From Candidatus Woesearchaeota archaeon (lineage in GTDB: Archaea > Nanobdellota > Nanobdellia > UBA10117 > ARS21): a DNA stretch of 64,000 nucleotides. Below the pieces are notes generated by a model. The model was not told where the DNA came from, did not search any database, and saw only the letters and a list, made by a program, of their open reading frames with translations. Made by a program: the position numbers and the translations under genes. Each line of letters starts with the position of its first letter. Position 1 is the stretch's first letter. Positions 1-60,218 of this stretch are shown piece by piece. The stretch covers positions 48,984 to 112,983 of the forward strand of contig CAYFOG010000001.1 in assembly GCA_964344705.1 (NCBI GenBank). The letters run 5' to 3'.

Positions 1-716
1 ACTTTCACATAGTCACCTTTTGGATCTGCTGCAATTGCTACGTTTGAAGGAAGAGTCCAAGGCGTTGTGGTGAATACCAACAGTGATGCGTCATCATTCT
101 TTAAGTTAAACTTTACATAAACTCCAGGATCAGTTTTTTCAGTTTGTTCAATTTCTGCTCCAGCTAAAGAGGTTTCACAATGAGGGCACCAATGGATTGG
201 CTTCTTTCCTTTGTAAACTTGATTTTTGTCAAACATTTGTTTGAACATCCACCAAGCAGATTCCAAGTAAGGATTTTTGTAAGTCAAATAAGGGTCGTCA
301 TCCCAACCTATCCAAGCACCATACTTGTTATAAGTGTCCATCCAAACATCTACGTTTTGATCTGCTAACTTTTTACACTCTCGAGTGAATTTGCTTATAC
401 CATATTTCAGAATGTCACCCTTTCTCTTGAATCCAAGCTTTCGCTCAACCATATTTTCAATTGGCAAACCGTGAGTGTCGAATCCTGCGGTGAACAAAAC
501 CGAACGACCAGTCATCCAAGCATATCGAGTTGACAAGTCTTTGTAGTAAATATTTCTTAAGTGTCCTACATGAGGATCGTTGTTCGCGTATGGCGGTCCT
601 TCGAGCAAGAAATATGGTTTTCCATCTTTGTTTTTCTTTTGTAAAAGTTTTAGGAGATTTATCTTTCTCCACTGTTTATTCATTTCACTTTCTATTTTTT
701 GAAAGTCATATTTCAT
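1..716 (-). CDS. ileS: Isoleucyl-tRNA synthetase, N-terminal part (gene continues beyond window start)
   Basis: Own reverse-strand translation from ATG at 716 has no stop to the window edge. Motifs: GPPYANNDPHVGH (class I HIGH), GFDTHGLPIE, HWCPHCETSLA, TTTPWTLPSNVAIA (IleRS-type). Not in the ORF track because it runs off the edge. Confidence 0.8.
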   Translation of the reverse strand, partial: MKYDFQKIESEMNKQWRKINLLKLLQKKNKDGKPYFLLEGPPYANNDPHVGHLRNIYYKDLSTRYAWMTGRSVLFTAGFDTHGLPIENMVERKLGFKRKGDILKYGISKFTRECKKLADQNVDVWMDTYNKYGAWIGWDDDPYLTYKNPYLESAWWMFKQMFDKNQVYKGKKPIHWCPHCETSLAGAEIEQTEKTDPGVYVKFNLKNDDASLLVFTTTPWTLPSNVAIAADPKGDYVK

Positions 717-884
717 AATGATTTATTCTCCTGAAAATTTATATATGTGCCGTTAGTGGTATCGTTCTTAGAATTGACAAATGGGATAACCACTTCGCAT
801 AGAAGGAGTTAGACTACAGATTTAAAAGAGTTTTGAGCTTGCGGATTGTACAAATATTTAAAAGTCTGGTTGGAACGATTCTTT

Positions 885-4009: not shown

Positions 4010-4029
4010 GAGAAATATCCGAATCTAAT

Positions 4030-4290
4030 GGGCTAGACAGGTCGGGTAAGCGCGGCTGTTATCTTGTATGCTGAGATGTCGAAGCTCAAAGGGCGGCATG
4101 GATTGTATGCTTAGTCCCTGGCGTGTGACGTCGAAGCGTTGCCTCCTCTGGCGATTAAAGATGAGAACCTGGTCAGGCGGGGAACCGAGCAGCCATAATT
4201 ATGTTTATTTGTGCTTTGGAGTAGCGGCGTGGAGTTGTTCGTCAGTAAGGCTTTGTATTTTTGAAATGTCCACCTTTGAGCGTGCCCTTT
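4030..4290 (+). ncRNA. ffs: Signal recognition particle RNA (7S/SRP RNA)
   Basis: GC-rich island in an AT-rich genome with no ORF. The 5' end GGGCUAGACAGGUCGGG resembles an archaeal SRP RNA 5' end. The helix 8 motif GGUCAGG-CGG GGAA CCG-AGCAGCC (GNRA tetraloop flanked by conserved internal-loop nucleotides) lies at about 4170-4196. A 3'-proximal GCCC can pair with the 5' GGGC, followed by a U-rich tract. Ends are approximate. Confidence 0.8.
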
Positions 4291-4385
4291 ATATTCTGAA
4301 CTAAGATAAATATTATAATACTGTGATGCGTTTTTAAAATATGAGTTACAAAATTGGAAGCGGATCAATTTTTCCATATATTCAA

Positions 4386-8535: not shown

Positions 8536-9792
8536 ATGGACCCTTATGATGATTATTCAGATAATGTCGATTATAATACTAGCTCAGATACTAATACAGA
8601 TACGAATTATGGCTCGGACGATGGCTATGATTCTTTTGGAACCGATACTTCAAGCACGGACAGTTTTTTGAATGAGCCGGCAGCACCAGCTCAAGATAGT
8701 TTCAGCAGCACAGGATTTGATGCTCCAGCAGATGTTTCAAGCCTGAGCAAAGATGATGAAGAACTTGAAAAAGTTCTTGCAAATCGTAAGGCTCGAATTA
8801 AAGTAGTTGGTTGCGGAGGTGCGGGAAACAACACAATTTCTCGGATTTCTGAAATCGGAGTTACGGGTGCAGAAATTATTGCAATTAACACAGATGCACA
8901 GGATTTACTGAACGCAACGGCAGATAGAAAGTTATTGATTGGAAAAGATTTAACTCAAGGTCTTGGAGCGGGATCCGATCCTAGAATTGGAAAAGATGCT
9001 GCCAAGGAATCTCAGAAAGAAATTAAGGAATCGTTGTCCGATGCGCATATGATATTTATTACTGGTGGACTTGGGGGAGGAACAGGAACTGGATGTATGC
9101 CTGAAGTTGCAAGCATTGCAAAGAAGCTGGGCGTGTTGACTGTTGCTGTTGTCACCCTACCTTTTGAAATGGAAGGAGTTCTTCGACATGAAAATGCGAT
9201 GGTTGGTCTTGAAGAACTTGAAGGTTTGGTAGATACTTTGATTTTGATTCCAAATGACAAGCTGATTGAGCTTGCTCCAGACTTACCGCTTCATACTGCG
9301 TTCAAAGTTGCAGATGAAATTTTAACTAACGCAGTTAAAGGTATTGCGGAATTAATTACGAAACCAGGCTTAATCAATTTAGATTTTGCAGATATTAAGG
9401 CGGTTATGAGTTCGGGAGGAATTGCTATGATTGGACTTGGAGAAAGCGATACTGAAAATAGAGCGATTGAATCTGTTGAGAAAGCACTGAGCAATCCTTT
9501 GCTAGATGTTGAAGTTGGAGGAGCAACCGGTGCTTTGATTAATGTTATTGGTGGTCCAGATATGACTTTAGAAGAAGCCAAGAAAGTTGTTGAGAATGTT
9601 ACTGAACGACTTGACGAGAACGCAAAGATTATTTGGGGTGCACAGCTGAGTCCAGAATTGCAAAGTTCTGTTCGAACGATGCTTGTAGTTGTTGGAGTTA
9701 AATCTCCACAAATTTTTGGTCCAAAGAGAACCATGTCTAAGAAGAAGCAAGAAGACATGGAAGGTAATTTCGGAATTAAATTTATTGACTGA
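8536..9792 (+). CDS. ftsZ: Cell division GTPase FtsZ with an ~85-aa acidic, S/T/D/Y-rich N-terminal extension
   Basis: Tubulin signature [22 protein letters not shown]7 loop region; the low-complexity extension precedes the core. Confidence 0.9.
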
Positions 9793-36146: not shown

Positions 36147-36193
36147 ACGTTTTTGAACAAAAACTATATATTAAAAGCTTGTTAGTGTTTATC

Positions 36194-37354
36194 ATGTCTA
36201 TAGGCCGAAAAGGGAAGTCGGAAGTAAGCCCTACGGGTGCCGTAGTTTTGCTAGTTTTGCTCGCAGGATTTTTGCTATTTATCCTATCTCTTCCTCAAGG
36301 GGATCGAGATGATTTACTGAATCAATTAGAATCTGTTACTGTAGAAGTTCTTTTCGAAGAAGTTCCAGGAGACGTTCAGTCGGAAACAGGTTCTAGTAGC
36401 ACAACGCGCTATGACCTCACAAATTTCAAATTAGATTCAGAAATGAGTTCAAGAGATTCAGTATTAGATAGCAGTTTAGAACTATCTTCGACAGTTTTTA
36501 ATGATGATGCTGCAACTTATTCTTTTGTGCCAGTTTGGAATTCAAATACCATTGGAATGAGTTTTAATGCATTTGTTCAGAATTATGCAGGCAACGGAAA
36601 AATTGCTGTTTTGCTAAATGGAGCTCAAATATATTCGGGAACTCCTGTTGTTGGGAATGTGCTTAAAGTTCCACTTCCAGTTTCAGGAATGTTTCAAGGA
36701 ACTAATACTTTGGAAATAGTACTAGATAAACAAGGTGCTAATATTTTCAGTTCTACGAAAATTGGATTAACTGAAGTTCTGCTGAGAACGGACTCTACAG
36801 GGAAAGATTTGATGAGCACCTTTAGTTTTGAAGTTGAACGTGGAGAAATAGTTTCAGGAACTTATACCGCAATTGTTAGAAAATCTGGTGCAGCAGTTCC
36901 ACTTAAAATTGAGTTGAATGAAGAGAATATTTATTCTGAAGTTCCGCTATCAACCATATTAACTGTTCCAATTTCGGCTGGTTTGTTTAGAGTAGGAGAT
37001 AATTTACTATCATTCAGCATTGGTGAAGGAGTGTCCTACGAAATTCTTTATTCAGATTTGATTGTTAAAACTCGTGCTATTGAAGATGCCAGAGAGTATT
37101 TCTTTAGAATTGATAGAGATCAGGCTAGACGAATAATTAATGGCCGAGCAGACTGTCTTCTTGAGATTTCCAAAGACAGCGGAGCGTCTGATGAAGTTGT
37201 TGTTGATTTGAATGGATTTGTTAGCACGCACTCCGTTCGCTCTGGAGAAGTTTCGTTTGAGGTTTGCGACAGACTGGTTTATGGAGGGAATACAATTTCA
37301 TTTGCTTCTGATGAAGAGTTAAGTCTCAGTTCGGCAAGCTTGACTTTGAGTTAA
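36194..37354 (+). CDS. Hypothetical N-terminally membrane-anchored extracellular protein (first gene of a 4-gene surface operon)
   Basis: N-terminus MSIGRKGKSEVSPTGAVVLLVLLAGFLLFIL (basic residues then a hydrophobic anchor), S/T-rich extracellular part. The track start at 36179 is a TTG. TATA-like AAACTATATATTAAAAG lies about 20 nt upstream of the ATG (leaderless). Confidence 0.5.
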   Translation: MSIGRKGKSEVSPTGAVVLLVLLAGFLLFILSLPQGDRDDLLNQLESVTVEVLFEEVPGDVQSETGSSSTTRYDLTNFKLDSEMSSRDSVLDSSLELSSTVFNDDAATYSFVPVWNSNTIGMSFNAFVQNYAGNGKIAVLLNGAQIYSGTPVVGNVLKVPLPVSGMFQGTNTLEIVLDKQGANIFSSTKIGLTEVLLRTDSTGKDLMSTFSFEVERGEIVSGTYTAIVRKSGAAVPLKIELNEENIYSEVPLSTILTVPISAGLFRVGDNLLSFSIGEGVSYEILYSDLIVKTRAIEDAREYFFRIDRDQARRIINGRADCLLEISKDSGASDEVVVDLNGFVSTHSVRSGEVSFEVCDRLVYGGNTISFASDEELSLSSASLTLS

Positions 37355-37355
37355 G

Positions 37356-39269
37356 ATGGCAGATAATTCTGGTACAACAACCAATAAAGAGAAATGGATT
37401 GAGATTGGGAGTGCGCCGAAGGCTATTTTCAAAGCAGGAATATATGTATTAGTTATTTTCTTCTTTGCGGTTTTAGGTTATAATACTGGAGCCCCATTAA
37501 TCTGGTTTACTTATGTAGCAAACTTTTTTTGGGATATATTTAATTTGATTGCAAGAACAATTGGTGTTCCTGGAATTTCTCCTTTTTTTCTTGACTTTGC
37601 CTATGTTGCGGTAAAGAATGGAACGGGTTTTATTTTGAATGGTCTGTTTGGTTGGTGGCTCGTTCAAAATTTTTATCAAGGCACAAATAAAGTGGCCGGT
37701 GCTAAAAAATTAACAAGTAGCCTGTTCAATTTGGTCATAATTTTTCCATTAATTTGGATTTTTCTGAGTTTAATTATTACAACAGTTTACACAGGTTATG
37801 TTCCTTTTACAGACACAACAATGAGTCCATCACTTTGTGATTTTCAAAATTCAGCTCAACAAGCTGTTGGCTTGAGTCCGGTGTCTTGTGATATTTCTTC
37901 AATAACTGCGTCTATTGAGAGACAAGAAGAAGAAGCAGAATTTACAGCGACGACGGGAACGGGAATTTTAGGAAGGCTGTTTTCTCCAGTTATAGAGTCG
38001 ACGGGCGTTGGAAAAGTATTCAAATCTCGAGATGTGACGGATGAGAATGTTATTAATGCAGACGCAGGTTCAACTCTAACTGATTTGCGTGCTCCGAAAT
38101 TAAGTTATACTGCAAATGATAGAGTTGCAGAAGATATTAAGATATTAGCAAATATTGAGGCCAAGAATTTGTTCTTAAATCAACCAGGTAGTTCCAAGAT
38201 TGAAGTCAAGATTGAGCCAAGCATTTCAGATGCTCAATGTAGTAGTTGTTCAGGATTTAGCTGTTTGGCTGAAGAAGTTAATCTGCCGTTCTATGCTTTT
38301 GATCCTCTAGAAGATAATTCTATTGAATTTAATGCGGAAAATATTGAAGGTTGGTGTGATGAAGATGAGCAGGGCGGAAAGTGGACTTGCGGAATTAGTG
38401 GAATTTCTGAAGAAGATAGAATTGCTCCAAACACTTTCAATTTAGGAAGCGGATTCCACCAAGAGATTACTTGCATACATCCTGGACTTTCCTTGAGCGA
38501 AGAAGTGTTTGTTGATGGAGATGATGTAAAATATGATGGTCTTGGTAAACCGTTCTATGTTGATGTTGATTTCTCATATGATGGAACCGCCGCAGCAAAC
38601 AAACAATTGTTTGTGATTGACAAGAATGTTGCTCGTCAGGAAGAAGACCCGCTAACGGCACTGAGCTTACAAGATTACATAATTTCCAATTCTTATAATG
38701 ATGGAAGAGTAACTTTGGGAATTGGAACTGACACTTTGTATGAGTTTGTTACTCCAACTTATGATGAAGATTTCTCTTCAGATGTACTTGAACTTGCGTT
38801 AAGTTTCAAAGTAAATAGATATCCCGGTGGATATAAAGCAGAAGTCAACAAAGTTACTTTATGGGTCCAAGTTTTGGATGAATCTGTGGGATTCGTTTGC
38901 GGAAATGAAGGATTACCGAAGAAAGTTGATGGAAAATGGCAAATTGATAATCCTTGCGAAGTCGGCGAGCGAAGCGGAAACTTCCATTATGAAGGAACTG
39001 ATGAAACTGAAAGCTATCACAAGTTTGTTATGAATGCAGAGAATGCAACTGAGCTTGGTGCCAAGACGGAGTTGAATGTTGGGCAGTTTGCAAATTATGA
39101 TATTGATATGTTTATTCCTTCAGAAGTGCTGGCTGGAGCCAGTTATCAAGGTATTTTAATAGAGGCCGAGGTTGATTACACTTACACTACTCGAGACGAT
39201 ATATTAGTTAGAGTGACGCACGATGAATTTATTTCAGACGGAGCATCAGACATTGAACAGAACATATAA
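37356..39269 (+). CDS. Hypothetical polytopic membrane protein (about 4 N-terminal TM helices) with a large Cys-rich extracellular domain
   Basis: 637 aa. Multiple Cys clusters (CSSCSGFSC, WCDEDEQGGKWTCGISG, VCGNEGLP...NPCEVG). The start is 1 nt after the previous stop. Confidence 0.5.
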   Translation: MADNSGTTTNKEKWIEIGSAPKAIFKAGIYVLVIFFFAVLGYNTGAPLIWFTYVANFFWDIFNLIARTIGVPGISPFFLDFAYVAVKNGTGFILNGLFGWWLVQNFYQGTNKVAGAKKLTSSLFNLVIIFPLIWIFLSLIITTVYTGYVPFTDTTMSPSLCDFQNSAQQAVGLSPVSCDISSITASIERQEEEAEFTATTGTGILGRLFSPVIESTGVGKVFKSRDVTDENVINADAGSTLTDLRAPKLSYTANDRVAEDIKILANIEAKNLFLNQPGSSKIEVKIEPSISDAQCSSCSGFSCLAEEVNLPFYAFDPLEDNSIEFNAENIEGWCDEDEQGGKWTCGISGISEEDRIAPNTFNLGSGFHQEITCIHPGLSLSEEVFVDGDDVKYDGLGKPFYVDVDFSYDGTAAANKQLFVIDKNVARQEEDPLTALSLQDYIISNSYNDGRVTLGIGTDTLYEFVTPTYDEDFSSDVLELALSFKVNRYPGGYKAEVNKVTLWVQVLDESVGFVCGNEGLPKKVDGKWQIDNPCEVGERSGNFHYEGTDETESYHKFVMNAENATELGAKTELNVGQFANYDIDMFIPSEVLAGASYQGILIEAEVDYTYTTRDDILVRVTHDEFISDGASDIEQNI

Positions 39270-39293
39270 AAATGAGGGAGGGCTTCATAGATT

Positions 39294-40274
39294 ATGAAGA
39301 AACTTCATGTAATCATGCTTATTCTAGTAGTATTTCTGAGTGGATGTACTGCTGATGAGTCTATTGAGGTTCCAGTAGCTTCTAATTATGTTGGATTGGT
39401 TACAAGCGTTTATGCAGATTCTTTACCAAGTTCATTATATGAAGGAGATGCAATTTATTTGCAGTTACAGGTTGAAAATCAAGGAGATCATGATGTTGCT
39501 ACAAGTGAGTATTATCTGAACATAAAAGGAATTAATCCTGGAGCTTTTGAGGGTTTGGATGAGACCGATCTAACCAAAACTTCTAGCACGAATTTAGCGT
39601 CATTAGGTGCTTTTGGTAATGACACAATTGTTCGAGGTCAAGAAATATTTACTCTTGGTGAATCATTTACTTATTGTAATGATATTGATAATGACTTACC
39701 TTTGAATCTTCATGCTAAATCTTGTTATGATTACGGAACAACTTCAGAAATATCTGCGTGCTTTATTGAATCAACCGCAAGTATTGATGGAGAAATTTGT
39801 ACGGTTTCAGAATTTAAGCCAGTAACAAACAGTATTGCGCCGATAGTGATTACTGAAATTGCAGAGAGCGTTGCAGGAGCATCAGATGTTCGATTTAGAG
39901 TAAAAGTTGAGAACCTTGGAGACGGAACAGTATTTGACAAATATGCTTTGGGAACTGAGACAGATACTATTGTTGGTTGCGATAATTTGGTTCGAGGAAC
40001 AAGCAACCTGGTGTATATTGAGAAAATAACTTTGGATGGAATACCTATGAATTTGAGATATGAAGGAGGTGTTGAAACTACTTCAGATGGAAGAAACAGA
40101 TTTAGACTTGATTCAACGGGCGCGGGAAGATTCTCTTTTGTGACTGGAACAACAGGTCTTGAATTTGTTGGTAATGTTGAGATTGAGTTAAGTTATGGTT
40201 ACACTGAGACAGACGTCTTTAGCTCAACAATCAAAGCACTTCCAGACTTTAGCCCGACGTGTAGTGTTGCCTAA
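39294..40274 (+). CDS. Hypothetical lipoprotein (lipobox LSGC), paralog of the next gene
   Basis: Signal peptide plus the lipobox VFLSGC. Conserved Cys pattern shared with the 40277 protein. SD GGAGGG upstream. Confidence 0.55.
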   Translation: MKKLHVIMLILVVFLSGCTADESIEVPVASNYVGLVTSVYADSLPSSLYEGDAIYLQLQVENQGDHDVATSEYYLNIKGINPGAFEGLDETDLTKTSSTNLASLGAFGNDTIVRGQEIFTLGESFTYCNDIDNDLPLNLHAKSCYDYGTTSEISACFIESTASIDGEICTVSEFKPVTNSIAPIVITEIAESVAGASDVRFRVKVENLGDGTVFDKYALGTETDTIVGCDNLVRGTSNLVYIEKITLDGIPMNLRYEGGVETTSDGRNRFRLDSTGAGRFSFVTGTTGLEFVGNVEIELSYGYTETDVFSSTIKALPDFSPTCSVA

Positions 40275-40276
40275 AA

Positions 40277-41263
40277 ATGAACATTCGAAAAGCAATTATT
40301 GTGGTTTTGTTAATATTTGTTAGCGGATGCGTTCATGGAGCGCAAACTACTTCTAGCGGAGATATTGGAAGCGGACTGATTGGCACAAATAACGGAATCA
40401 TTTTTGAAATGTCAGAAATTCCACCAGCGATCAGTTCAGGTCAAGCATTTGGTTTAGAAGTTTCAGCGACAAATGCTGGTTCATATTCTGTAAATCCAGG
40501 AGACGTCAGAGTTTCATTAAGCAATTCAAAATCCTTCAATTTTTTATTGAATGAAGATTTTCAGCAAGTGATAGTTGGGGAAAACGGTTTAACTAATAAT
40601 AATGTTTTGCTTAAGTCTTTGGACGCAGATGTTCTTGGAGATTCAGCAATTTTCTTGTTTGATGATTTGTCTTACAAAACTAAACCTACTCAAGATATTC
40701 AAGTTCCGCTTACAATTGATACTTGTTATTATTATTCCTCTGTTGCGTCCGTAAATATTTGTGTTGCAAAAGATACGTCAAGCGAAATTTGCAGTTCAAA
40801 CGAAGCTAAGTCTGTTGTAAATCACGGAGCTCCAATAAAGGTTTCAGGATTTGAACAAATAAGTAGTTTGGGCAACAAAGAAGTAATTACATCAAATATT
40901 CGGATCGATGTTGATGCTGTTGGAGATGGCAAATTTGAATCTTATTCCACTCCAAAGCCAACATTGGATTGTACTGCTCCAGCAAGCGATATTATTCTTA
41001 ACTCAGTAAGATTGAAATCTATTCAAGTTGGAAGTCAAGCAATAATTGAAGGAGATGATATTGACAGCGTTTGCGAAGTTTCTCAAGATGGCGGAATTAT
41101 TAATTTGGATGCTGATGGAAAAGGTTCAATCGTTTGTAATGGTGTTAGACTTTATGGACAATATACAGAATCAATTGGTGATTTTGAAGAAAGAATGGTA
41201 ATTACTTTGGATTATTTGAATTCAGACAGCATTACTGGAAATTTGAAGGTTCTATCAAATTAG
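40277..41263 (+). CDS. Hypothetical lipoprotein (lipobox VSGC), paralog of the preceding gene
   Basis: Signal peptide plus the lipobox IFVSGC. Shared C-x(8-10)-C-x9-C region and similar length (328 vs 326 aa). Confidence 0.55.
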   Translation: MNIRKAIIVVLLIFVSGCVHGAQTTSSGDIGSGLIGTNNGIIFEMSEIPPAISSGQAFGLEVSATNAGSYSVNPGDVRVSLSNSKSFNFLLNEDFQQVIVGENGLTNNNVLLKSLDADVLGDSAIFLFDDLSYKTKPTQDIQVPLTIDTCYYYSSVASVNICVAKDTSSEICSSNEAKSVVNHGAPIKVSGFEQISSLGNKEVITSNIRIDVDAVGDGKFESYSTPKPTLDCTAPASDIILNSVRLKSIQVGSQAIIEGDDIDSVCEVSQDGGIINLDADGKGSIVCNGVRLYGQYTESIGDFEERMVITLDYLNSDSITGNLKVLSN

Positions 41264-53088: not shown

Positions 53089-55212
53089 ATGGTAAACATG
53101 AAAAAAATGATATCAGTTGCCCTTATGGTGCTGATTGGACTAACTTCTTTGTCAGTAGCTTTTGCTGCGACAAGTACTAATGGCGACTTTACTGCTGTTG
53201 AAGATACAAATGCATTAACTATTGCTCACGGTCAATCTGTGAGCGGAACTATAACTCTAACTAATAATATTGGTACGGGTGCTGCTATGATTTATGATCT
53301 TAGTCTAACGGGACTACCTGCTTGGATGACAGTTACTTTTTATGAGAGCGGAAGTCTAATTACTCAGACAAGTTCAGTTGCTGATGGAGCATCTTTAACA
53401 ATTACTTATACTGCAAGTGTTACAGCAAATACTGCTGCAACTACAACACCTCAAGCATTCAACATTGTGGCTAGTGAAAATGGAGCAGCTACAGCAAACA
53501 CTGCTACAATCGCAATGACTGCTGAGGTTCCAAGCGATCCTTCACGAGTTATCACTCAAGATACAGTTGTATCAACTGTTGCTCGAGAAAGCTCAGTAGA
53601 AATTACTGTTGAAGTTGATAACACAGGAAATGAAAACGTTGTTGTTTCTCAAACTCTCGGAAGTTTGGCAAACGCAGCAACTGATAACACTTATTTGGAT
53701 ATTGGAGCTTTGACTTTGAATTGGAATGATGGAAGAACTCTTTCAACCACTGGAGCAACTGTAGCTCCTGAAACTGGTGGATCAAATACAATTATTCCAG
53801 GAAGCTCTCAAAATTTCGTAATTACTATACCTACTGTAGCAACAGATAGATATGGAGTGTACACCGGAACTTTGAGTCTTATGGATAATTCAAATCCAGC
53901 AATTTCAAAAGATACATCTGCTTTGACAATTAATCTTGTTGATGTAAACAACGAAGCAGGATTAAAGATTAATGATGGTCCGAAGGATGGCGAATTCAAT
54001 GACGTATCTGCGGATGATTCAAGAACTTATCCTGGAGACAATATTGAAATAATCGATGTAACAATTGATAACGAAGTTGGTAAAGATTTAGAAAATGTAT
54101 TCGTTACAATTTCTGTTTACAGTCAAGTCGATGGAGATAAAATAATTAATGAATTCGAATCAGATTATTCAGATATTGATGACAATAGAGATGATCAATT
54201 TGATTACGCATTCCAATTACCTTTTGATATTATTGAAGGAACATATGTAATTGAATATGTTGTAGAGGCTGAAGATGTAGATGGAAATTTATCAACTGCG
54301 ATGGCTTATGACACATTTACAGTTGAACAAGATAGTGATCACTTGGCTGTAGAATCAATTACAATTGGAGAATACTGTGCGGGTGAAACTGCAGAATTTG
54401 AAGTAAAGATTGCAAATATCGGAACAACACGAATGGATGATACTGATGATATTCAAGTTAAAATGACAATTGGAAATTTCAATTTTGATGAAATAATTAG
54501 ATGGACTGAGGACTTCAGGTCCGGAGATTCAGAATTATTTACATTTAATGTAGATATTCCAACAGACGCAACAAGTCCAAACCTTATAGAAGTTGCTGTA
54601 TTCCATGATCGGGATACAGATTCCGGAGATGACGGTGCAACAAGCGCTCAAACATATACTTTGTCAACAGAGAATTGTGCTGAAGCTGAAGGTGCTGACG
54701 TACATGGAATAATTACTGGAACATCTGTTGCAGATGGAGCGGTTGGAACTCCGGCACGATATGATCTGACAATCATGAACACTGGTTCAAGTCTGGCAGA
54801 ATATGATTTGGAAGTTTCAGGAATATCTGGATGGGGAACATCACAAGTTGAACCTGCAGGAACAATTACTGTTGGCGCAGGAGAAACAGCAACTGTGTAT
54901 GTTTACTTAACTCCAAACGATAACGCGGCTGAAAGCAATGCTGCGGTAATAACTTTGAAATCTGGAGCAAACGTAATTCAGACAAAAACAGTAACAATGA
55001 ATGTTGCTGGAGCTTCAATTTCAACATATACAAATGCTTTACTCGGTTCAAGTATTGTTGACTTGGGCGCAGACCAACAAGGTTTGATTACTCTGTTGTC
55101 TCTGGCCACAATCTTGTTTGTAACTGTGGGAACACTTTACACAGCTACACAACCAACAAGAAGTTCAGCAAAGAAAAAGAAGAAGCGAGCAACAAAAAAG
55201 GAGCGTAGATAA
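53089..55212 (+). CDS. Large secreted surface protein with CARDB/DUF11-like repeats and a C-terminal TM anchor plus K-rich tail
   Basis: Signal peptide MKKMISVALMVLIGLTSLSVAFA, T/D/E-rich beta-repeat regions, C-terminus LLSLATILFVTVGTLYTA-TQPTRSSAKKKKKRATKKERR. Confidence 0.55.
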   Translation: MVNMKKMISVALMVLIGLTSLSVAFAATSTNGDFTAVEDTNALTIAHGQSVSGTITLTNNIGTGAAMIYDLSLTGLPAWMTVTFYESGSLITQTSSVADGASLTITYTASVTANTAATTTPQAFNIVASENGAATANTATIAMTAEVPSDPSRVITQDTVVSTVARESSVEITVEVDNTGNENVVVSQTLGSLANAATDNTYLDIGALTLNWNDGRTLSTTGATVAPETGGSNTIIPGSSQNFVITIPTVATDRYGVYTGTLSLMDNSNPAISKDTSALTINLVDVNNEAGLKINDGPKDGEFNDVSADDSRTYPGDNIEIIDVTIDNEVGKDLENVFVTISVYSQVDGDKIINEFESDYSDIDDNRDDQFDYAFQLPFDIIEGTYVIEYVVEAEDVDGNLSTAMAYDTFTVEQDSDHLAVESITIGEYCAGETAEFEVKIANIGTTRMDDTDDIQVKMTIGNFNFDEIIRWTEDFRSGDSELFTFNVDIPTDATSPNLIEVAVFHDRDTDSGDDGATSAQTYTLSTENCAEAEGADVHGIITGTSVADGAVGTPARYDLTIMNTGSSLAEYDLEVSGISGWGTSQVEPAGTITVGAGETATVYVYLTPNDNAAESNAAVITLKSGANVIQTKTVTMNVAGASISTYTNALLGSSIVDLGADQQGLITLLSLATILFVTVGTLYTATQPTRSSAKKKKKRATKKERR

Positions 55213-55230
55213 ACTCGCTCCCTCATACTC

Positions 55231-55255
55231 TCACCTGAGGTACCTCAGGAGGTGA
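55231..55255 (+). promoter_or_regulatory. Intergenic hairpin (palindrome CCTGAGGTACCTCAGG with flanks) overlapping the SD-like GGAGGTGA of the next gene
   Basis: Perfect 7-bp stem CCUGAGG/CCUCAGG with a 2-nt loop. GGAGGUGA lies 8 nt before the ATG at 55264. Confidence 0.35.
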
Positions 55256-55263
55256 AAAACAAA

Positions 55264-56841
55264 ATGAACAAAATAACAAAAAATTTGATTAGTTTGCTTT
55301 TGGTAACATTAGCATTACTAGCACCAGTAAGTGCAGCAACTCCTGCATTGGAAATTAGTCATACTAACTCTAATGGAGACAGTGCAACAGCACGACTTGT
55401 AACCTCTAATCTGGTGATGACACAAGGAGGAGTTCTAAGCATCCCTGTTGATGTATTGAATACTCTTTCAACTGACTACACATTAGAAGTTATTGTAACT
55501 GGAGACGGAATTGACAACACAAAGTCAGAAACATTGAACATTGAAGCAAATCTAGGTTCTATTTCAGAAACTAGAACTGCAGAATTTGTTCTAGACAGTG
55601 TTCTGACAGAAGGACAACACAGTATAAATGTACAATTGAATCTTCACGATATGACTCAACAACAAGCTACTGGGTCACTAGCAATGGATTTAACTGTTAA
55701 CCCTGAAATTCCAGCACTTCCAATAAACTATGAACCAAACTTGGTTACAGCAAAATTGGATAAAAGTGACTTGAATCCTGGTGATAACGTAGAAATTGAA
55801 ATTGATCTTGAAAATGGTTTAACTGATTACGATGATGTAACTGTTGAAGCTAAAATTGTTGATTCAAACAATGAAAGAGTTGGAGATAAAGTTGAAGTAG
55901 ATGTCGGTCACTTAGAAGCTGAATTCGACAAAACTGTAACTATGTCTATAGCACTTCCATCTGATTTGGACACTGGAGCATACGCAGTTGAAATTATTGT
56001 AACTGGAGACGTTGAAACTAGTTCAACTGTTCAATTAATGAACACACAACTAGACGCAGCAACTCTAAACTTCGATGTTGAAAGACACGAACACAGTTTG
56101 ACTATTGAATCAGTTACACATAATCCAAATGCACAAGCAGGTGACACATATAGTGTTGCAGTTAGTGTTATGAATAATGGATTAAACTATGAAGAAGATG
56201 TTGTAATTACTGTTTCTATGGCAGGAACAACTCAAACTTCAGCAACTTTCGCAATTGATCAAGACGAAGAAATTGTTCAATACTTTAACTTAGCTATCCC
56301 AAGTGATGCACAAAGTTCAGAAGTATTGGCTGTGTTAGTAAATGGAGAAGATTCTTCAGCAAGATACACTGCTGAAGTAAATGTTGGCGCAAGCGCAACT
56401 GTAAGCTCTGCTGGATTATCAGCAACTGTTGATTCAGTTTCCAAGACTGTTGGAAGCGAAGGAACAGCATATATGATAACTCTAGTAAACAACGATGATT
56501 TAACAAGAACTGTCGGTGTTTCCGTTGGCGGAGTACAAGGTTGGGCAGATGCTACAATTACACCTGCAACTCTAACATTGACTCCAGGGTCAAGTGGAAT
56601 TGCAAGCGTATACATTAACCCATCAGATAATGCTGAAGGGACAAACGCTTTCACTGTTTATGTAAGTGAAGGAAACCAAGTTGTTTCAAGCGTAGGTCTA
56701 ACAGCTACTGTTGATGATGCAGTTGATGTAATGAATTGGGCTTTAGCAGCAATTGCTTTGGTTCTAGCAGCATTCGCATACAACCAACGATCTCGTCCAG
56801 CAACAAAAGGACGAAGAAGATCAAAGAGAGTCTACTACTAA
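55264..56841 (+). CDS. Secreted surface protein with CARDB/DUF11-like repeats and a C-terminal TM anchor plus basic tail
   Basis: Signal peptide LLLVTLALLAPVSAA, C-terminus WALAAIALVLAAFAYNQRSRPATKGRRRSKRVYY. The track start at 55252 is a GTG; the ATG at 55264 has an SD. Confidence 0.55.
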   Translation: MNKITKNLISLLLVTLALLAPVSAATPALEISHTNSNGDSATARLVTSNLVMTQGGVLSIPVDVLNTLSTDYTLEVIVTGDGIDNTKSETLNIEANLGSISETRTAEFVLDSVLTEGQHSINVQLNLHDMTQQQATGSLAMDLTVNPEIPALPINYEPNLVTAKLDKSDLNPGDNVEIEIDLENGLTDYDDVTVEAKIVDSNNERVGDKVEVDVGHLEAEFDKTVTMSIALPSDLDTGAYAVEIIVTGDVETSSTVQLMNTQLDAATLNFDVERHEHSLTIESVTHNPNAQAGDTYSVAVSVMNNGLNYEEDVVITVSMAGTTQTSATFAIDQDEEIVQYFNLAIPSDAQSSEVLAVLVNGEDSSARYTAEVNVGASATVSSAGLSATVDSVSKTVGSEGTAYMITLVNNDDLTRTVGVSVGGVQGWADATITPATLTLTPGSSGIASVYINPSDNAEGTNAFTVYVSEGNQVVSSVGLTATVDDAVDVMNWALAAIALVLAAFAYNQRSRPATKGRRRSKRVYY

Positions 56842-56955
56842 GTAGACTTTCTTCTTTTCTTTTTTCTTATCTTTAAAATATGCTATTAAATAGCTAAATC
56901 TTTTTATATAAAGTTCCGACGGTAGAGCAAGGTAGAACTACCTTAGGATGATAAT

Positions 56956-59490
56956 ATGATGAAGAAACTTTTCATGACTCTTGCAGTTTTGGTGCTAGTT
57001 ATGCAACCAGCTTTTGCGTTTACGCTTTCTTCAGCTGATCAAAGTGTTTCAACATGTCCGAGTAATACTGGATTGTTTGTTGCGCAAGTTGGAAATACTG
57101 GAAGTTCTACAGAGATTTACACACTAGGATTATCGGGCGCAGCAAGCGGTTGGGCAAGCGTTGCTCCAGCAGGATTTGCTCTTGGTCCGGGACAATCTCA
57201 AGACGTTTATGTTTATGTTACTCCTTCTTCAAATGCACAAGTCGGCAATTATCCTTTAACTTTAACTGTTTCTTCTGGCACGTCAAGCCAGAATTTGGCT
57301 TTTGATTATACTGTGGAGTCTTGTCATGATATTTCACTTACGGCTCAAACCAATGAGCTATCCGTTTGTTCAGGAAATTCAGCAAGCTATGTTTTAAATT
57401 TGAGAAATGACGGTCAGTGGGAGGATACATTTGACTTAGCAGTCTCTGGAGAAGCAGGAATTTGGTCGAGCTTGAGCCGGAATTCTGTTTCACTTGCGCC
57501 AGGAGAGTCCGAACAATTAAGTGTAGTTGTTACACCGCCAAGAAACGAGGTTGGAGTTTATTCGCTAGCAGTATCTGCCACATCTCAGAGTGCTGGAGTC
57601 GTGGTTGCTCAATCATTAACAATCGCCTCAAGATCATGCTATGATTTTGACATGGTTGCCTCAGAAAACTATGTCTCATTTTGTGATAATTCTGAAGCGA
57701 AAGTTCCAGTAACAATTACTAATTCAGGTTCAGAAAACGATGTTTACAGTTTAGATTTGAATGGGAATAGTTGGTCTGTTCTTGATAGAGATTCAATTAG
57801 CGTTCCTGCGGGAGCCAGTGCAGCATTCAATTTAATATTAACTCCAGGATTTGGAGATGTTGGAACAAGTGTTTTCAATATTGAAGCTGAAGCCACTACT
57901 GGAGACACATCAGATTCAGTAACAATTAATGCAAATGTCTTAACATGTAGAGATACAAGTTTGGATATTGAGAGTTCAAGTATTGAGCTTTGTCCTGGAA
58001 CAAGTGAAACTGTTAATGTAATGCTGACAAATGCGGGACAGTTCCAAGAGAGTTATTCTTTGACGGTTGATGGTCCAAGTTGGGTTAATTTGGATAGAAA
58101 CTCAGTAATTCTTGCTTCAGGCGAATCAGCAACAATGCAATTATCTTTATCACCGCAAACGAATGCGGGTTTGATTTATGAAGATGTTACTGTCAGTGCA
58201 AAATCTCAAAATGTAGGAAATACTCAAGACTCTGATTCAATTAGAGTAAATGTTCCAGTAAGAGCGGCTTGTTATAATGTTGACGTCTCGACTGAACACA
58301 GGGCTGTCACCGTTGCTTATGGTGAAGGAGCGTTAGTTCCAATTGTTGTTCAAAATATAGGTTCTCAAAGCAATACTTATGAATTTACTGTGTCTGGAGA
58401 TGGCGCACAATTTGCGCAGATTAATCCTGGAGCAATTGAAGTTGAAGGCAATACTGTTGAAGAAGCTTACTTATATATTTCAGTTCCACGAGATGCAGCA
58501 AAAACTTCGTATACGATTGCAGTGGCTGCGCAATCTGGAGATTTAAGAGATTCAACCGCAGTTATTCTGACCGTTTCAGATGAAGAACCTAAATTTATTG
58601 GAGCCGTACCAGAAAGTTTGAAAGATGCTGGTTCTGGCGCAGTTTCATCAGTTTGGAGTGGCCTAGTTAGTTTATATTCCGTCACCTCTAATTTTGTTAT
58701 AAATTATTGGTATATATTTCCAGCACTATTGGCACTGTTGGTTGTGCTTTATGGACTCGGACGAGTTCGTGATTCTGAATCTTGGATGAAAGATTTGGAA
58801 CTTCTTGAGCAAGAGTTAGAACTTTCTGAAAAGAAAGAGATACCTAAACCTAAGAAGACACAACCATCATTGCTAAAGCGTTTCTCAGATTGGTTAATGG
58901 AAGAAGATGAAGTTAAAGTTGTAACTAAATCTAAACCTCCAGTGAAATCTGAAACAAAAGTGAAAAAAGAACCGGGAAGGTTCCAACGTTTCTCAGATTG
59001 GTTAATGGAAGAAAACGTACCAAAGGCTAAGCCGAAAGCCAAACCTACCCCTAGACCTAAACCTAAGAAGACACAACCATCACTACTAAAACGATTTTCT
59101 GACTGGTTAATGGAAGATGATGAAGTAGTTCAAGTAACTCGTAAACCTGGGAAATCATTATTAGAACAAGCAAAAGAATTTCTTTTTGAAGAAGTTCCAG
59201 TTACTGAAGAGAAAGTTAGAAAACCTAAACCAAAGAAAAAGGAAAAAGGACTTTGGCAAAAATTCATTGATTGGTTAGAGGAAGAAGATGAATCTAAACC
59301 AAAGCCCAAATCACGTTCAAGATCGACGCCAAAACCAAAAACCAAGAAAGAACCAGGACTATTACAAAAATTCTCAGATTGGTTAATGGAAGAAGATGAC
59401 AAACCTAAGACTAAACCAAAACCTAAACCAAAGAAAAAGGAAAAAGGTATTTGGCAAAAATTCATTGATTGGTTAGAAGAGGAAGATTAA
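56956..59490 (+). CDS. Large surface protein: signal peptide, five ~105-aa Cys-bounded CARDB/DUF11-like repeats, a single TM helix, and a ~250-aa cytoplasmic tail with six K-F-S/I-D-W-L-M/E-E-E-D-E motif repeats
   Basis: Repeats start CPSN.., CHDISL.., CYDFDM.., CRDTSL.., CYNVDV... TM segment YIFPALLALLVVLYGLG. Tail motifs LLKRFSDWLMEEDE, FQRFSDWLMEEN, LLKRFSDWLMEDDE, LWQKFIDWLEEEDE, LLQKFSDWLMEEDD, IWQKFIDWLEEED, separated by K/P-rich linkers. Confidence 0.55.
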   Translation: MMKKLFMTLAVLVLVMQPAFAFTLSSADQSVSTCPSNTGLFVAQVGNTGSSTEIYTLGLSGAASGWASVAPAGFALGPGQSQDVYVYVTPSSNAQVGNYPLTLTVSSGTSSQNLAFDYTVESCHDISLTAQTNELSVCSGNSASYVLNLRNDGQWEDTFDLAVSGEAGIWSSLSRNSVSLAPGESEQLSVVVTPPRNEVGVYSLAVSATSQSAGVVVAQSLTIASRSCYDFDMVASENYVSFCDNSEAKVPVTITNSGSENDVYSLDLNGNSWSVLDRDSISVPAGASAAFNLILTPGFGDVGTSVFNIEAEATTGDTSDSVTINANVLTCRDTSLDIESSSIELCPGTSETVNVMLTNAGQFQESYSLTVDGPSWVNLDRNSVILASGESATMQLSLSPQTNAGLIYEDVTVSAKSQNVGNTQDSDSIRVNVPVRAACYNVDVSTEHRAVTVAYGEGALVPIVVQNIGSQSNTYEFTVSGDGAQFAQINPGAIEVEGNTVEEAYLYISVPRDAAKTSYTIAVAAQSGDLRDSTAVILTVSDEEPKFIGAVPESLKDAGSGAVSSVWSGLVSLYSVTSNFVINYWYIFPALLALLVVLYGLGRVRDSESWMKDLELLEQELELSEKKEIPKPKKTQPSLLKRFSDWLMEEDEVKVVTKSKPPVKSETKVKKEPGRFQRFSDWLMEENVPKAKPKAKPTPRPKPKKTQPSLLKRFSDWLMEDDEVVQVTRKPGKSLLEQAKEFLFEEVPVTEEKVRKPKPKKKEKGLWQKFIDWLEEEDESKPKPKSRSRSTPKPKTKKEPGLLQKFSDWLMEEDDKPKTKPKPKPKKKEKGIWQKFIDWLEEED
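58850..59490 (+). repeat. Imperfect tandem DNA repeats (~60-70 nt units) encoding the FSDWLMEEDE-motif tail
   Basis: Near-identical DNA stretches, e.g. aagacacaaccatca(t/c)t(g/a)ctaaa(g/a)cg(t/a)tt(c/t)tc(a/t)ga(t/c)tggttaatggaaga at 58856 and 59066, and gaaaaagg(a/t)(c/a)tttggcaaaaattcattgattggttaga at 59244 and 59443. Confidence 0.6.
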
Positions 59491-60218
59491 TGCCTTTTTT
59501 GGATGACATTTTGGACTATAAGTATTCTTTATCTCAGTGGCATATCAACAATGAAGATTTTAATAATATTGAATTTGCGCCACTGTATTTCAGTCTAGAT
59601 AAAGATTCCATGACTCAATTTGCAAAAGAAGGAAGAGGATATTCAACAGAAGATGGTCGGGCCCGCGCCAGAAGAAATAAAGATGACCGATTAATCATCC
59701 GAAGACCTTTTGATGGAATAATAAAACGACTTAGGAGAATTAATGAGTTGGAATATGCGGTTTTGGGTGATAGAATTATTTGGAAGGAAAGAATTCCTCC
59801 AGAGAAGGCAATGTTTAATTTTCGTTCTACTGAGCATGAATATGTTTTGGACATGGATATTCGTTCCGATGCAAACTTCAATAATTTATTGAGTGCGCTT
59901 TCATCAACAGAACCAAATCCACAATTATTAGAAGCAACGCTTCAAAAAAGAAAAAGATTTGCTAAAGAAATTATTTCAGAAAATGAAATTTTTATGATTG
60001 ATGTAACAAACAAATATTGGAGTTCAAAATCAAATAAACATTCTTGGTTTGAAATTTTCTATATGCTTCCAAGAGACTCTGAAAATTGCGATTTAGCTTT
60101 GAGAAGAGTAATTGAAGCAAATCTTGATGGTCCATCACACAAACGTCGAGCAAAATATCAGGAAAGACGTGCGCTTCAAATGTTGGCCGAGTATGAAGCA
60201 GAACATTCTAAATCTTAA
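59490..60218 (+). CDS. Hypothetical protein (242 aa); its start overlaps the stop of the preceding surface-protein gene (TAATG)
   Basis: ORF 59469-60218; ATG at 59490; R/K-rich; no family recognised. Confidence 0.35.
   Translation: MPFLDDILDYKYSLSQWHINNEDFNNIEFAPLYFSLDKDSMTQFAKEGRGYSTEDGRARARRNKDDRLIIRRPFDGIIKRLRRINELEYAVLGDRIIWKERIPPEKAMFNFRSTEHEYVLDMDIRSDANFNNLLSALSSTEPNPQLLEATLQKRKRFAKEIISENEIFMIDVTNKYWSSKSNKHSWFEIFYMLPRDSENCDLALRRVIEANLDGPSHKRRAKYQERRALQMLAEYEAEHSKS

Follow-up and report, generated by a model that had tools for sequence, protein, structure and literature searches.

A conserved, repeated peptide motif in the predicted cytoplasmic tail of an Ig-like surface protein from a Woesearchaeota-like DPANN archaeon

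Background

A tiny, Woesearchaeota-like DPANN archaeon has a surface protein in whose tail we found a previously undescribed peptide motif, G-x-W-x-K-F-x-D-W-L-E-E-E; the six to eight copies of this motif most likely act as a multi-site docking strip. The tail is modelled as an intrinsically disordered extension of an Ig-like surface protein. The reading that we prefer, tentatively, is that each motif is a docking peptide for one cytoplasmic protein and that the array is multivalent.

Almost nothing is known about the link between envelope and cytoplasm in uncultivated DPANN archaea, which depend on contact with the surface of a host. Disordered tails with arrays of short linear motifs characterise eukaryotic receptors; to our knowledge no archaeal example has been described. 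The present array, which is conserved, can expand and is found solely in the tail of a single surface-protein family, provides a concrete handle on this link, and the 13-residue peptide could be used as bait for whatever sits under the membrane. Concerted evolution and changes in copy number can also be seen at this locus, within a repeat that is coding and lies in a reduced genome.

Architecture of the surface protein and topology of its tail

The motif-bearing gene, its parts and its neighbours are listed in Table 1, with positions in the window (the whole 64-kb stretch of DNA that was analysed). Pfam matches in the ectodomain, given as bits versus the gathering threshold, were obtained with FixG_C (PF11614; 69.2 vs 25.6), the HYDIN/VesB/CFA65-like (ASH-like) Ig domain (PF22544; 49.2 vs 25.5), Cep192_D3 (PF22067; 39 vs 27) and NPCBM_assoc/NEW3 (PF10633; 35.9 vs 24.4), and the Foldseek matches of the ectodomain model were tandem ASH/Ig arrays. 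The N-terminal domain matched NCBIfam choice-of-anchor T (NF041740) with 62.4 bits, under the cut-off of 70, and N-glycosylation sequons were absent from the ectodomain. The succession of signal peptide, Ig-like domains and C-terminal transmembrane (TM) helix is suggestive of an archaeal S-layer protein.

Just two hydrophobic segments, those of the signal peptide and the TM helix, occur in the protein. The tail of about 240 aa that follows the TM helix is basic and K/P-rich (60 K+R in 238 aa, with many KPKPK runs) and has a pI of 9.4 and no Cys, versus a pI of 4.05 and 8 Cys for the ectodomain. Both the number of hydrophobic segments and this contrast would place the tail on the cytoplasmic side, in line with the preliminary description. 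At its outer end the TM helix carries an aromatic belt, NYWY[IV]FP, which is kept in orthologues, and on the inner side it is followed by a heptad-like juxtamembrane helix.

Table 1. Features of the motif-bearing gene and of the adjacent genes in the window
Feature	Position	Strand	Residues (aa)	Description and evidence
Upstream paralogous Ig-like surface protein	53089..55212	+	707 in total	short basic tail; ORF, Pfam
Upstream paralogous Ig-like surface protein	55252..56841	+	529 in total	short tail; ORF, Pfam
Motif-bearing gene	56956..59490	+	844 in total	type-I surface protein; translated ORF, Pfam Ig-like matches, orthologues
Signal peptide	56956..57018	+	1-21	MMKK...PAFA; hydrophobic segment aa 4-27; AF2 helix aa 3-15
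Ectodomain	57019..58578	+	22-541	five Ig-like beta-sandwich domains; AF2 pLDDT about 85-95; Foldseek
Single TM helix	58705..58773	+	584-606	Kyte-Doolittle peak aa 579-605; AF2 helix aa 587-606
Juxtamembrane helix	58780..58830	+	609-625	SWMKDLELLEQELELSE; AF2 helix aa 609-625; kept in both close clades
Copy 1, unit type A	58870..58908	+	639-651	LLKRFSDWLMEED; AF2 helix 640-647; DNA repeat
Copy 2, unit type C	58978..59016	+	675-687	RFQRFSDWLMEEN; AF2 helix 676-683; DNA repeat
Copy 3, unit type A	59083..59121	+	710-722	LLKRFSDWLMEDD; AF2 helix 710-718; DNA repeat
Degenerate seventh (central) copy	59158..59196	+	735-747	LLEQAKEFLFEEV; AF2 helix 735-743; kept in orthologues
Copy 4, unit type B	59251..59289	+	766-778	LWQKFIDWLEEED; AF2 helix 766-775; DNA repeat
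Copy 5, unit type C	59359..59397	+	802-814	LLQKFSDWLMEED; AF2 helix 802-810; DNA repeat
Copy 6, exact C-terminus	59449..59487	+	832-844	IWQKFIDWLEEED; AF2 helix 832-842; DNA repeat
Downstream orphan gene	59490..60218	+	242 in total	overlap TAATG; syntenic only in close clade; candidate partner

Copies of the motif in the tail

In the translated tail, x-x-x-[KR]-F-[SI]-D-W-L-[ME]-E-[ED]-x is clearly present six times, the number announced in the preliminary description, to which we add the degenerate seventh copy and possibly an eighth. The first position, [LF], of the consensus proposed there is missed by copy 2 (R-F-Q-R-F), which is a trivial deviation. The degenerate copy is an F-L variant resembling the DFLEEE of single-copy homologues, and the juxtamembrane segment SWMKDLELLEQELE (aa 609-622) might be the eighth, highly diverged copy. 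Best conserved is copy 6, with the terminal peptide KKKEKGIWQKFIDWLEEED.

Around the core G-x-[WL]-x-[KR]-F-x-[DN]-W-L-x-E-[ED], every copy is preceded by a polybasic, K-rich stretch of +3 to +6 and followed by an acidic cluster, and the charge blocks are strongly segregated in all units. AF2 places one short helix on each of seven copies (pLDDT 50-64) and models the linkers (below 50) as disordered; such predicted helices amid disordered linkers are a pattern typical of binding motifs in disordered regions. AF2 confidence on the motif helices is only moderate, a point against docking. The tail contains the minimal core F-x-D-W-L 6 times. Of 20,000 shuffled tails, just 32 contained it, each a single time. 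No further match to the motif was found outside the tail in all six frames of the 64-kb window.

Repeat structure and history of the array

At the DNA level, a repeat search distinguished three unit types in the order A-C-A-x-B-C-B, with type A repeats at 58839 and 59052, type C repeats at 58952 and 59333, and type B repeats, 93% identical, at 59220 and 59418. The type A and type B pairs match the DNA repeat pairs that had been pointed out beforehand. Tandem Repeats Finder, applied to 58600-59600, did not call the array and returned just 6-9-nt micro-repeats, because the spacing of the units is irregular (90-213 nt). The copies are therefore interspersed direct repeats: the repeats first reported as tandem are real, but they do not form a regular tandem array. 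Two antisense ORFs (58749-59042 and 59130-59465) were set aside as by-products of the codon composition of the repeat.

Orthologues were recovered via the neighbouring gene, the ectodomain and an exhaustive profile search, while a tail-only protein search gave 4 fragments. The exhaustive profile search of 1.84 billion proteins produced 13 matches, and all full-length ones were homologues of the same architecture. Among the 1.84 billion representatives, no protein outside this family appears to use such a docking site, which one would hardly expect of a general adaptor system and which speaks against docking. One protein, P0003, was considered as a soluble four-copy form and rejected, its N-terminus resembling the end of a TM segment and its contig measuring 1.4 kb.

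Far from being absent from orthologues, the motif is kept in orthologues and homologues down to about 35% identity. Between 1 and 7 copies are present in the family as a whole, and orthologues with 84-87% identity have 4-7 of them; in one close orthologue, a 36-aa segment has been duplicated in tandem, exactly and recently. In distant homologues a single copy is found, which usually forms the very end of the protein (…GGFWKKIEDFLEEE); in these single-copy forms the tail measures 27-35 aa and has a short basic stretch, and the motif lies 25-35 residues from the TM helix. Practically every family member has the terminal copy, and in nearly invariant form. Since distant homologues have one copy and close orthologues 4-7, an old single motif has been expanded, with the number still varying. 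The six-copy layout is common to relatives whose neighbouring gene is just 67% identical, so the array is not mainly recent. The recent duplication and copy-number variation suggested at the outset are borne out by the 4-7 copies and the fresh 36-aa duplication, but they do not extend to the array as a whole, which is mainly not recent, or to the motif, which is ancient.

The units undergo gene conversion: units 4 and 6 vary together within a genome, and in this lineage copy 3 derives by conversion from copy 1. Starting with a single ancestral copy at the C-terminus, the array grew through duplication of units, gene conversion keeping the copies alike. Known multivalent motif arrays change in copy number and undergo conversion in this manner, and we count both in favour of docking.

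The tails might instead associate with each other, which we consider rather improbable: the basic block, aromatic helix and acidic block of neighbouring tails would bind each other through electrostatic zippers and W/F/L contacts and so form a meshwork or condensate in the cytoplasm, beneath the surface lattice, with oligomerisation driven by the juxtamembrane helix. The segregated charge blocks of every unit, the alternation of aromatic 'stickers' with flexible 'spacers', and the conservation and heptad-spaced leucines of the juxtamembrane SWMKDLELLEQELE are consistent with this, and the lack of need for an external partner fits the restriction to one family. Single-copy homologues nevertheless keep the motif on their short tails, where networking would be weak, and the AF2 scores (coordinates aside) give no sign of helix packing, the helices being low-scoring and lying in disordered linkers.

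Conservation within the motif: protein docking or membrane binding

Position information content was calculated from about 149 distinct motif instances of 32 family members, which gave 3.7 bits for L+1, 3.5 for W0, 3.4 for E+3 and 2.9 for E+4, followed by F-3 (2.7), K/R-4 (2.4), G-8 (2.3) and D/N-1 (2.2). Leu or Ile follows the W in 147 of the 149 instances. Charged positions are conserved as strongly as hydrophobic ones, and the conservation of the motif is more specific than generic amphipathicity needs. The linkers remain basic and Pro-rich, although they vary in length and sequence through indels and turnover while the cores are kept.

This division between linkers and cores bears on a role of the tail as a nucleic-acid tether, in which the K/P-rich linkers would be the functional part and would attach DNA, RNA or ribosomes to the membrane, leaving to the acidic helices a role as intramolecular regulators or spacers. 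The abundance of K, R and KPKPK runs makes the linkers comparable to histone H1 or TonB-type KP repeats, and their basic character is constant across the family. We regard such a tether as very unlikely, given that the linkers are the least conserved part of the tail and the acidic-aromatic cores the most conserved, and that single-copy homologues have just a short basic stretch.

A possible, though less probable, alternative to docking is that the polybasic, W/F-rich helices lie in the inner-leaflet interface and stitch the tail to anionic lipids, thereby stiffening or organising the membrane of a small cell, without a protein partner. Segments that bind peripherally to anionic membranes classically show the same signature, a W/F-rich amphipathic helix after a polybasic stretch, which weighs against docking. 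The six copies have a hydrophobic moment of 0.66-0.80 and a mean hydrophobicity of 0.64-0.76, and the targeting helix of E. coli FtsA gave a moment of 0.84 with the same script. The maximum moment is, however, not above that of shuffled tails (mean maximum 0.70, 95th percentile 0.81). Further points for membrane binding are that Trp and Phe are typical interfacial residues, that a K-rich stretch precedes every copy, that the one protein with the motif has a membrane tether already, and that single-copy forms carry the motif 25-35 residues from the TM helix. Against this, the helix core windows have z = -2 to +1 and are followed by the conserved EEE[DE] cluster, which anionic archaeal lipids should repel, and generic membrane helices tolerate exchanges at acidic and basic positions that are here conserved like the hydrophobic face. 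Should the helices prove to bind lipid, such a multi-anchor design would still be unusual in a very small cell.

Because conservation is as strong at the charged as at the hydrophobic positions, we favour protein docking over membrane-surface amphipathic helices. The near-invariant terminal copy, the cores kept amid changing linkers and the cytoplasmic side predicted for the tail also count in its favour. Each peptide would be a short linear motif that folds into an amphipathic helix on binding a cytoplasmic protein, the K/P-rich linkers would act as extended spacers, and the array would provide high-avidity, multivalent recruitment of the partner to the inner membrane face, beneath a heteromeric surface complex. 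What the data show is the architecture, the helix propensity, the conservation, the history of expansion and the restriction to one family; the topology, the binding of a protein and multivalency as the selected property are inferred.

Neighbouring genes and a candidate partner

A cytoskeletal, ESCRT or ATPase component, as proposed in the preliminary description, would be a conceivable partner of the tail. The product of the co-translated downstream orphan gene, the neighbour suggested there, has a presumably novel fold and an invariant N-terminus, M-x-F-L-D-D, that echoes the core of the motif. In distant motif-bearing family members the orphan gene is replaced by unrelated genes; those downstream of the distant L010, L011 and L013 were unrelated to it by BLAST and, for L010, also by hhalign. 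Not being conserved in distant family members, it is therefore not a general partner, and its lack of conservation beyond the close clade is a further point against docking. Orthologues of the 529-aa upstream paralogue adjoin the motif-bearing gene in distant relatives.

A more specific proposal, which we put forward as a speculation with a smaller chance of being correct than docking as such, is a lineage-specific outside-to-inside coupling in DPANN archaea: a conserved cluster of Ig-like surface proteins would contain one subunit with a tunable array of 1-8 copies of a helical W-L-acidic docking motif that recruits a cytoplasmic protein to the membrane, in this clade perhaps the translationally coupled product of 59490-60218.

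Comparison with known systems

In agreement with the initial impression that described archaeal systems do not include this motif, searches of the whole protein against Pfam and NCBIfam gave no match in the tail, a profile of 20 motif units gave no match among all PDB sequences at E<=10, and full-text literature searches for DWLEEE, DWLEEED, FSDWLMEE and FIDWLEEE returned no paper. Neither did literature searches on DPANN/Woesearchaeota surface proteins, S-layers, cytoplasmic tails and archaeal short linear motifs turn up a description of it. Viral mimicry was rejected, the tail having no relative in IMG/VR, as was a likeness to the C-terminal peptides of the ribosomal stalk or FtsZ, nothing similar being present in the window's genes for P0 and FtsZ. 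FFAT, LIR, clathrin box, PIP box and W-acidic motifs were ruled out by sequence register.

The PCNA-interacting PIP box, Q-x-x-[LIM]-x-x-[FY]-[FY] or, more broadly, Q-x-x-[LIM]-x-x-[FYW]-[FYW], is often C-terminal in archaea and resembles the C-terminal Q-K-F-I-D-W-L, with its aromatics and subsequent charged residues. The register is off by one, however, the aromatic pair being needed at positions 7-8 where W-L is found here at 6-7; position 4 is Ser in copies 1, 2, 3 and 5, copies 1 and 3 have no Gln, and PCNA binding is implausible in the context of a membrane protein.

With PGF-CTERM/archaeosortase substrates and 'choice-of-anchor' proteins the protein shares secretion, Ig-like domains and a C-terminal TM helix with basic residues after it. 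A PGF-CTERM sorting signal was rejected: SNFVINYWYIFP, preceding the TM helix, contains neither PGF nor another signature motif, and the tail has 240 aa rather than 3-8 basic residues.

The C-terminal membrane-targeting helices of FtsA and MinD and the polybasic-aromatic segments of the MARCKS type are net basic and poorly conserved in sequence. The terminal motif shares with them a C-terminal amphipathic helix with Trp, Phe and Leu on one face, a comparable moment and an adjacent polybasic stretch. While a high moment with an apolar face is found here, a net positive helix charge is not (-2 to +1), the basic charge of the motif units being confined to the preceding linker. Unlike in FtsA and MinD, the helix is neutral to acidic, runs into the EEE[DE] cluster, is conserved residue by residue and occurs in up to eight copies, on a protein with a TM anchor of its own.

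EspFU/TccP, a secreted bacterial effector, recruits N-WASP multivalently through tandem units of an amphipathic helix and a proline-rich linker. Both systems combine helix-forming peptides with Pro-rich spacers, vary in copy number between strains and maintain near-identical units by recombination. In EspFU, however, the units are 47 aa long, regular and almost identical, whereas here three unit types are spaced by 90-213 nt in an integral archaeal membrane protein, and there is no sequence similarity between the two.

The tail of calsyntenin-1 reportedly carries two W-acidic copies that bind the TPR domain of kinesin light chain. The W-acidic consensus [LM]-x-W-[DE], of which the core is also given as [LMTIFV]-x-W-[DE], is eukaryotic. 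Here the W is followed by Leu, the motif would form an amphipathic helix of 10-12 residues after a polybasic stretch, and it occurs in DPANN archaea; all copies read D-W-L and do not match the W-acidic core, so that the resemblance is one of function and not of membership. Both are nevertheless type-I membrane proteins with an Ig/cadherin-like ectodomain and a disordered tail in which repeated motifs are centred on an invariant Trp in an acidic context, and in both, multivalency would raise avidity. The proposed coupling device would accordingly be a functional analogue of the motif-bearing tails of eukaryotic adhesion receptors.

Architecture of the surface protein and motif copies in its tail

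The open reading frame at 56956-59490 (+) encodes a surface protein of 844 aa that possesses only two hydrophobic segments, a signal peptide and a single transmembrane (TM) helix (see table). In Pfam, the region between both segments matches FixG_C, HYDIN/ASH-like Ig, Cep192_D3 and NPCBM_assoc above threshold. In an AlphaFold2 model, computed from a family alignment of 32 sequences, this ectodomain consists of five beta-sandwich domains (pLDDT about 85-95) which in Foldseek match generic tandem ASH/Ig arrays and nothing else. It is acidic (pI 4.05, 8 Cys) and does not contain any N-x-S/T sequon for N-glycosylation. A PGF-type sorting signal is absent from the protein, and its score for choice-of-anchor T membership lies below the cut-off. 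An aromatic belt, N-Y-W-Y-[IV]-F-P (58693-58725), is conserved at the outer end of the TM helix and occurs family-wide in varied form (YWY, NWLW, HWYW). The tail of 238 aa is basic (pI 9.4, 60 K+R, 48 D+E, 26 Pro, 9 Trp, 0 Cys) and, given the cleavable N-terminal signal combined with one TM helix, would be located in the cytoplasm according to topology rules, as the preliminary description had proposed.

Features of the 844-aa surface protein, with predicted helices
Feature	Residues (aa)	Strand	Prediction
Signal peptide, N-terminal	4-27	+	hydrophobic segment
Single TM helix	579-605	+	hydrophobic segment
Motif copy 1	639-651	+	AlphaFold2 helix 640-647
Motif copy 2	675-687	+	AlphaFold2 helix 676-683
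Motif copy 3	710-722	+	AlphaFold2 helix 710-718
Degenerate seventh copy, LLEQAKEFLFEEV	735-747	+	AlphaFold2 helix 735-743
Motif copy 4	766-778	+	AlphaFold2 helix 766-775
Motif copy 5	802-814	+	AlphaFold2 helix 802-810
Motif copy 6	832-844	+	AlphaFold2 helix 832-842

All six copies of the motif x-x-x-[KR]-F-[SI]-D-W-L-[ME]-E-[ED]-x reported earlier were recovered in the tail, together with the degenerate copy, which had been overlooked and which shares its register with W-Q-K-F-I-D-W-L-E-E-E-D. The core F-x-D-W-L is present six times in the tail and never more than once per shuffle in 20,000 tail shuffles, and no further motif match was found in any frame of the 64 kb window. The seven copy helices are modelled with a pLDDT of 50-64 and every linker with a value below 50. 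The juxtamembrane segment is also helical in the model, and SWMKDLELLEQELE (aa 609-622) possibly represents one more, diverged copy. Copies 1 and 3 are each followed by a second conserved element, E-[VI]-x-[VI]-[VI]-T-[KR]-[KS]-x-P (58909-58935 and 59122-59157), which reads EIEIID in the distant members P0037, P0069, P0073 and P0003, and may represent an additional, beta-strand-type motif. Two antisense ORFs, 58749-59042 (-) of 97 aa and 59130-59465 (-) of 111 aa, cross the repeat region; their translations (FFFGLGF/SSSINQSE-type) mirror the K/E/W codons of the tail. They are almost certainly not genes.

Genomic context

The window is archaeal and carries RFC, FtsZ, P0, HerA, Kae1, aRF1, GINS, primase, EndA and RNase Z; the genomes most closely related to it are MAGs with the labels Woesearchaeota, Nanoarchaeota or DHVE6. 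Among the close MAGs the tail gene is followed by an overlapping orphan gene of 231-243 aa, RNase Z (minus strand) and EndA. Tail gene and orphan overlap at TAATG, the stop codon of the former and the start of the latter, and a GAGG Shine-Dalgarno-like sequence lies within the last E-E-E-D codons of the tail gene (59469-59492). A longer, TTG-initiated orphan ORF (59469) probably does not represent the real start, since all orthologues begin with M-x-F-L-D. Upstream, the tail gene closes a row of three consecutive paralogous Ig-like surface-protein genes (53089-59490; 707, 529 and 844 aa). The orthologue of the 529-aa paralogue also adjoins the motif-bearing gene in distant relatives (loci L011-L013), which points to a conserved surface-protein cluster with a long tail in only one subunit. 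This arrangement suggests that the proteins form a conserved heteromeric complex at the surface or are candidates for an S-layer.

Elsewhere in the window, an archaeal SRP RNA at 4026-4291 (+) scores 89.1 bits, just below the Rfam gathering score of 96.5; with the default gathering threshold only the S-domain (4138-4234) is reported, as 'Bacteria_small_SRP', a misleading label in an archaeal genome. The ribosomal stalk protein P0 (15296-16312, -) ends in ...EEKVEEESSSDNQSDKE, without the hydrophobic C-terminal tip by which archaeal P0/P1 usually bind translation GTPases. FtsZ (8536-9792, +) has an unusual Asp/Ser/Thr-rich N-terminal extension of about 80 aa ahead of the GTPase domain and a short C-terminal peptide, ...NFGIKFID. 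For four consecutive ORFs at 36179-41263 (+), of 391, 637, 326 and 328 aa, Pfam gives no match at E<=1e-5.

Distribution and evolution of the array

A profile of 29 positions, built from 20 motif units and searched exhaustively with HMMER against 1.84 billion cluster representatives (E<=0.001), yielded 13 proteins only, and every full-length match combines a signal peptide, a homologous Ig-like ectodomain, a TM helix and a motif-bearing tail. An ectodomain-based search returned 38 homologues, among which the motif is kept in orthologues at 84-87% identity (4-7 strict copies; P0051, for instance, has 5), in P0063 at about 65% (7 copies) and, as one copy each, in homologues at 35-38%, and is absent below about 30%. 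Three of the single-copy homologues (P0066, P0067, P0070) have a tail of 27-35 aa ending in ...KGGFWKKIEDFLEEE, and in P0071, P0072, P0074 and P0047 the single copy lies near the TM helix. In one close clade (the window and L002-L005) the central variant is accompanied by six copies; the other clade (L001, L007-L009) has three or four. From this distribution the motif is old and defines a family, with probably one copy as the ancestral state, and the arrays arose through expansion. P0003 (L010, 210-791), on a contig of 1.4 kb, is called as a protein of 193 aa that has an acidic N-terminus, lacks a TM helix and bears four copies; it may be a soluble form or else only part of a frameshifted gene.

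At the DNA level the units belong to three types in the order A-C-A-x-B-C-B, with 93% identity over 74 nt between the two B units. The repeat pairs noticed previously are thus present, but they do not form a regular tandem array: Tandem Repeats Finder reported none over the motif units because the spacing is irregular (90-213 nt). Comparison of 69-nt units with those of L004 showed 97% identity for units 1 and 6 and 90% for unit 4, whereas unit 3 shares only 67% with its L004 counterpart but 88% with the window's own unit 1 and has been converted; unit 5 is nearer to L004 unit 3 (81%) than to L004 unit 5 (72%). Units 4 and 6 co-vary per genome (both WKKF in L002, GLW in L003, GIW in L004). Between both tail genes DNA identity is about 75-90% gene-wide, with indels concentrated in the tail linkers. 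P0054, with an 86% identical ectodomain, has 4 strict copies; here a unit of 36 aa (EIKIITKSKPKVKSETKVKKEPGMLQRFSDWLMEED) is duplicated exactly and in tandem and two later units are lost, which is a very recent change in copy number. The earlier suggestion of recent duplication and copy-number variation is consequently right in kind, though the six-copy layout itself predates the divergence from relatives with only 67% identity in the neighbouring gene.

Proposed function of the tail

The consensus K-K-[KE]-[KP]-G-[LI]-[WL]-[QK]-[KR]-F-x-[DN]-W-L-[EM]-E-E-[DE] was derived from a position table of about 149 distinct instances, including about 19 off-register matches of the loose filter. Information is highest at L+1 (3.7 bits), W0 (3.5), E+3 (3.4) and E+4 (2.9), followed by F-3 (2.7), K/R-4 (2.4), G-8 (2.3) and D/N-1 (2.2). 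On a helical wheel, positions -7, -6, -3, 0 and +1 lie together on a single apolar face, and each helix is preceded by a K/P-rich stretch of +3 to +6 and followed by an acidic cluster.

We tentatively favour a multivalent docking array, in which every unit would serve as a short linear motif that turns helical when it binds a protein of the cytoplasm, with the K/P linkers as extended spacers and with avidity tuned through copy number. This is argued for by charged positions as strongly conserved as hydrophobic ones, an invariant terminal copy with a free acidic C-terminus, helix islands predicted in disorder, and units that evolve in concert while their number turns over. The main rival, in which polybasic-plus-aromatic helices sit in the inner-leaflet interface, is somewhat less probable: the hydrophobic moment of 0.66-0.80 and the basic flank fit, but this moment is no higher than in shuffled tails, the helix charge is neutral to negative, and conservation acts at the residue level and includes the EEE cluster. 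That the block-charged units self-associate is improbable, and that the linkers tether nucleic acid more so still.

The tail has no match in Pfam, NCBIfam or PDB sequences and no paper containing the motif strings was found in literature full text, in line with the initial impression of an undescribed motif. The array is thus a real, conserved and previously undescribed element of a DPANN surface-protein tail, with a clear history and a function that we can only infer, and is of interest mainly because it offers experimental access to the coupling of envelope and cytoplasm in DPANN archaea.

Comparison with known systems

A PIP box was rejected with its register off by one, and a W-acidic motif since the residue following W is Leu instead of Asp or Glu. 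None of the systems considered is a family match; in working principle, the closest to the array include the eukaryotic W-acidic motifs of calsyntenin-type tails and the EspFU-type repeats of helix and proline linker, and the closest to the inner-leaflet alternative are the membrane-binding segments of the FtsA/MinD/MARCKS type.
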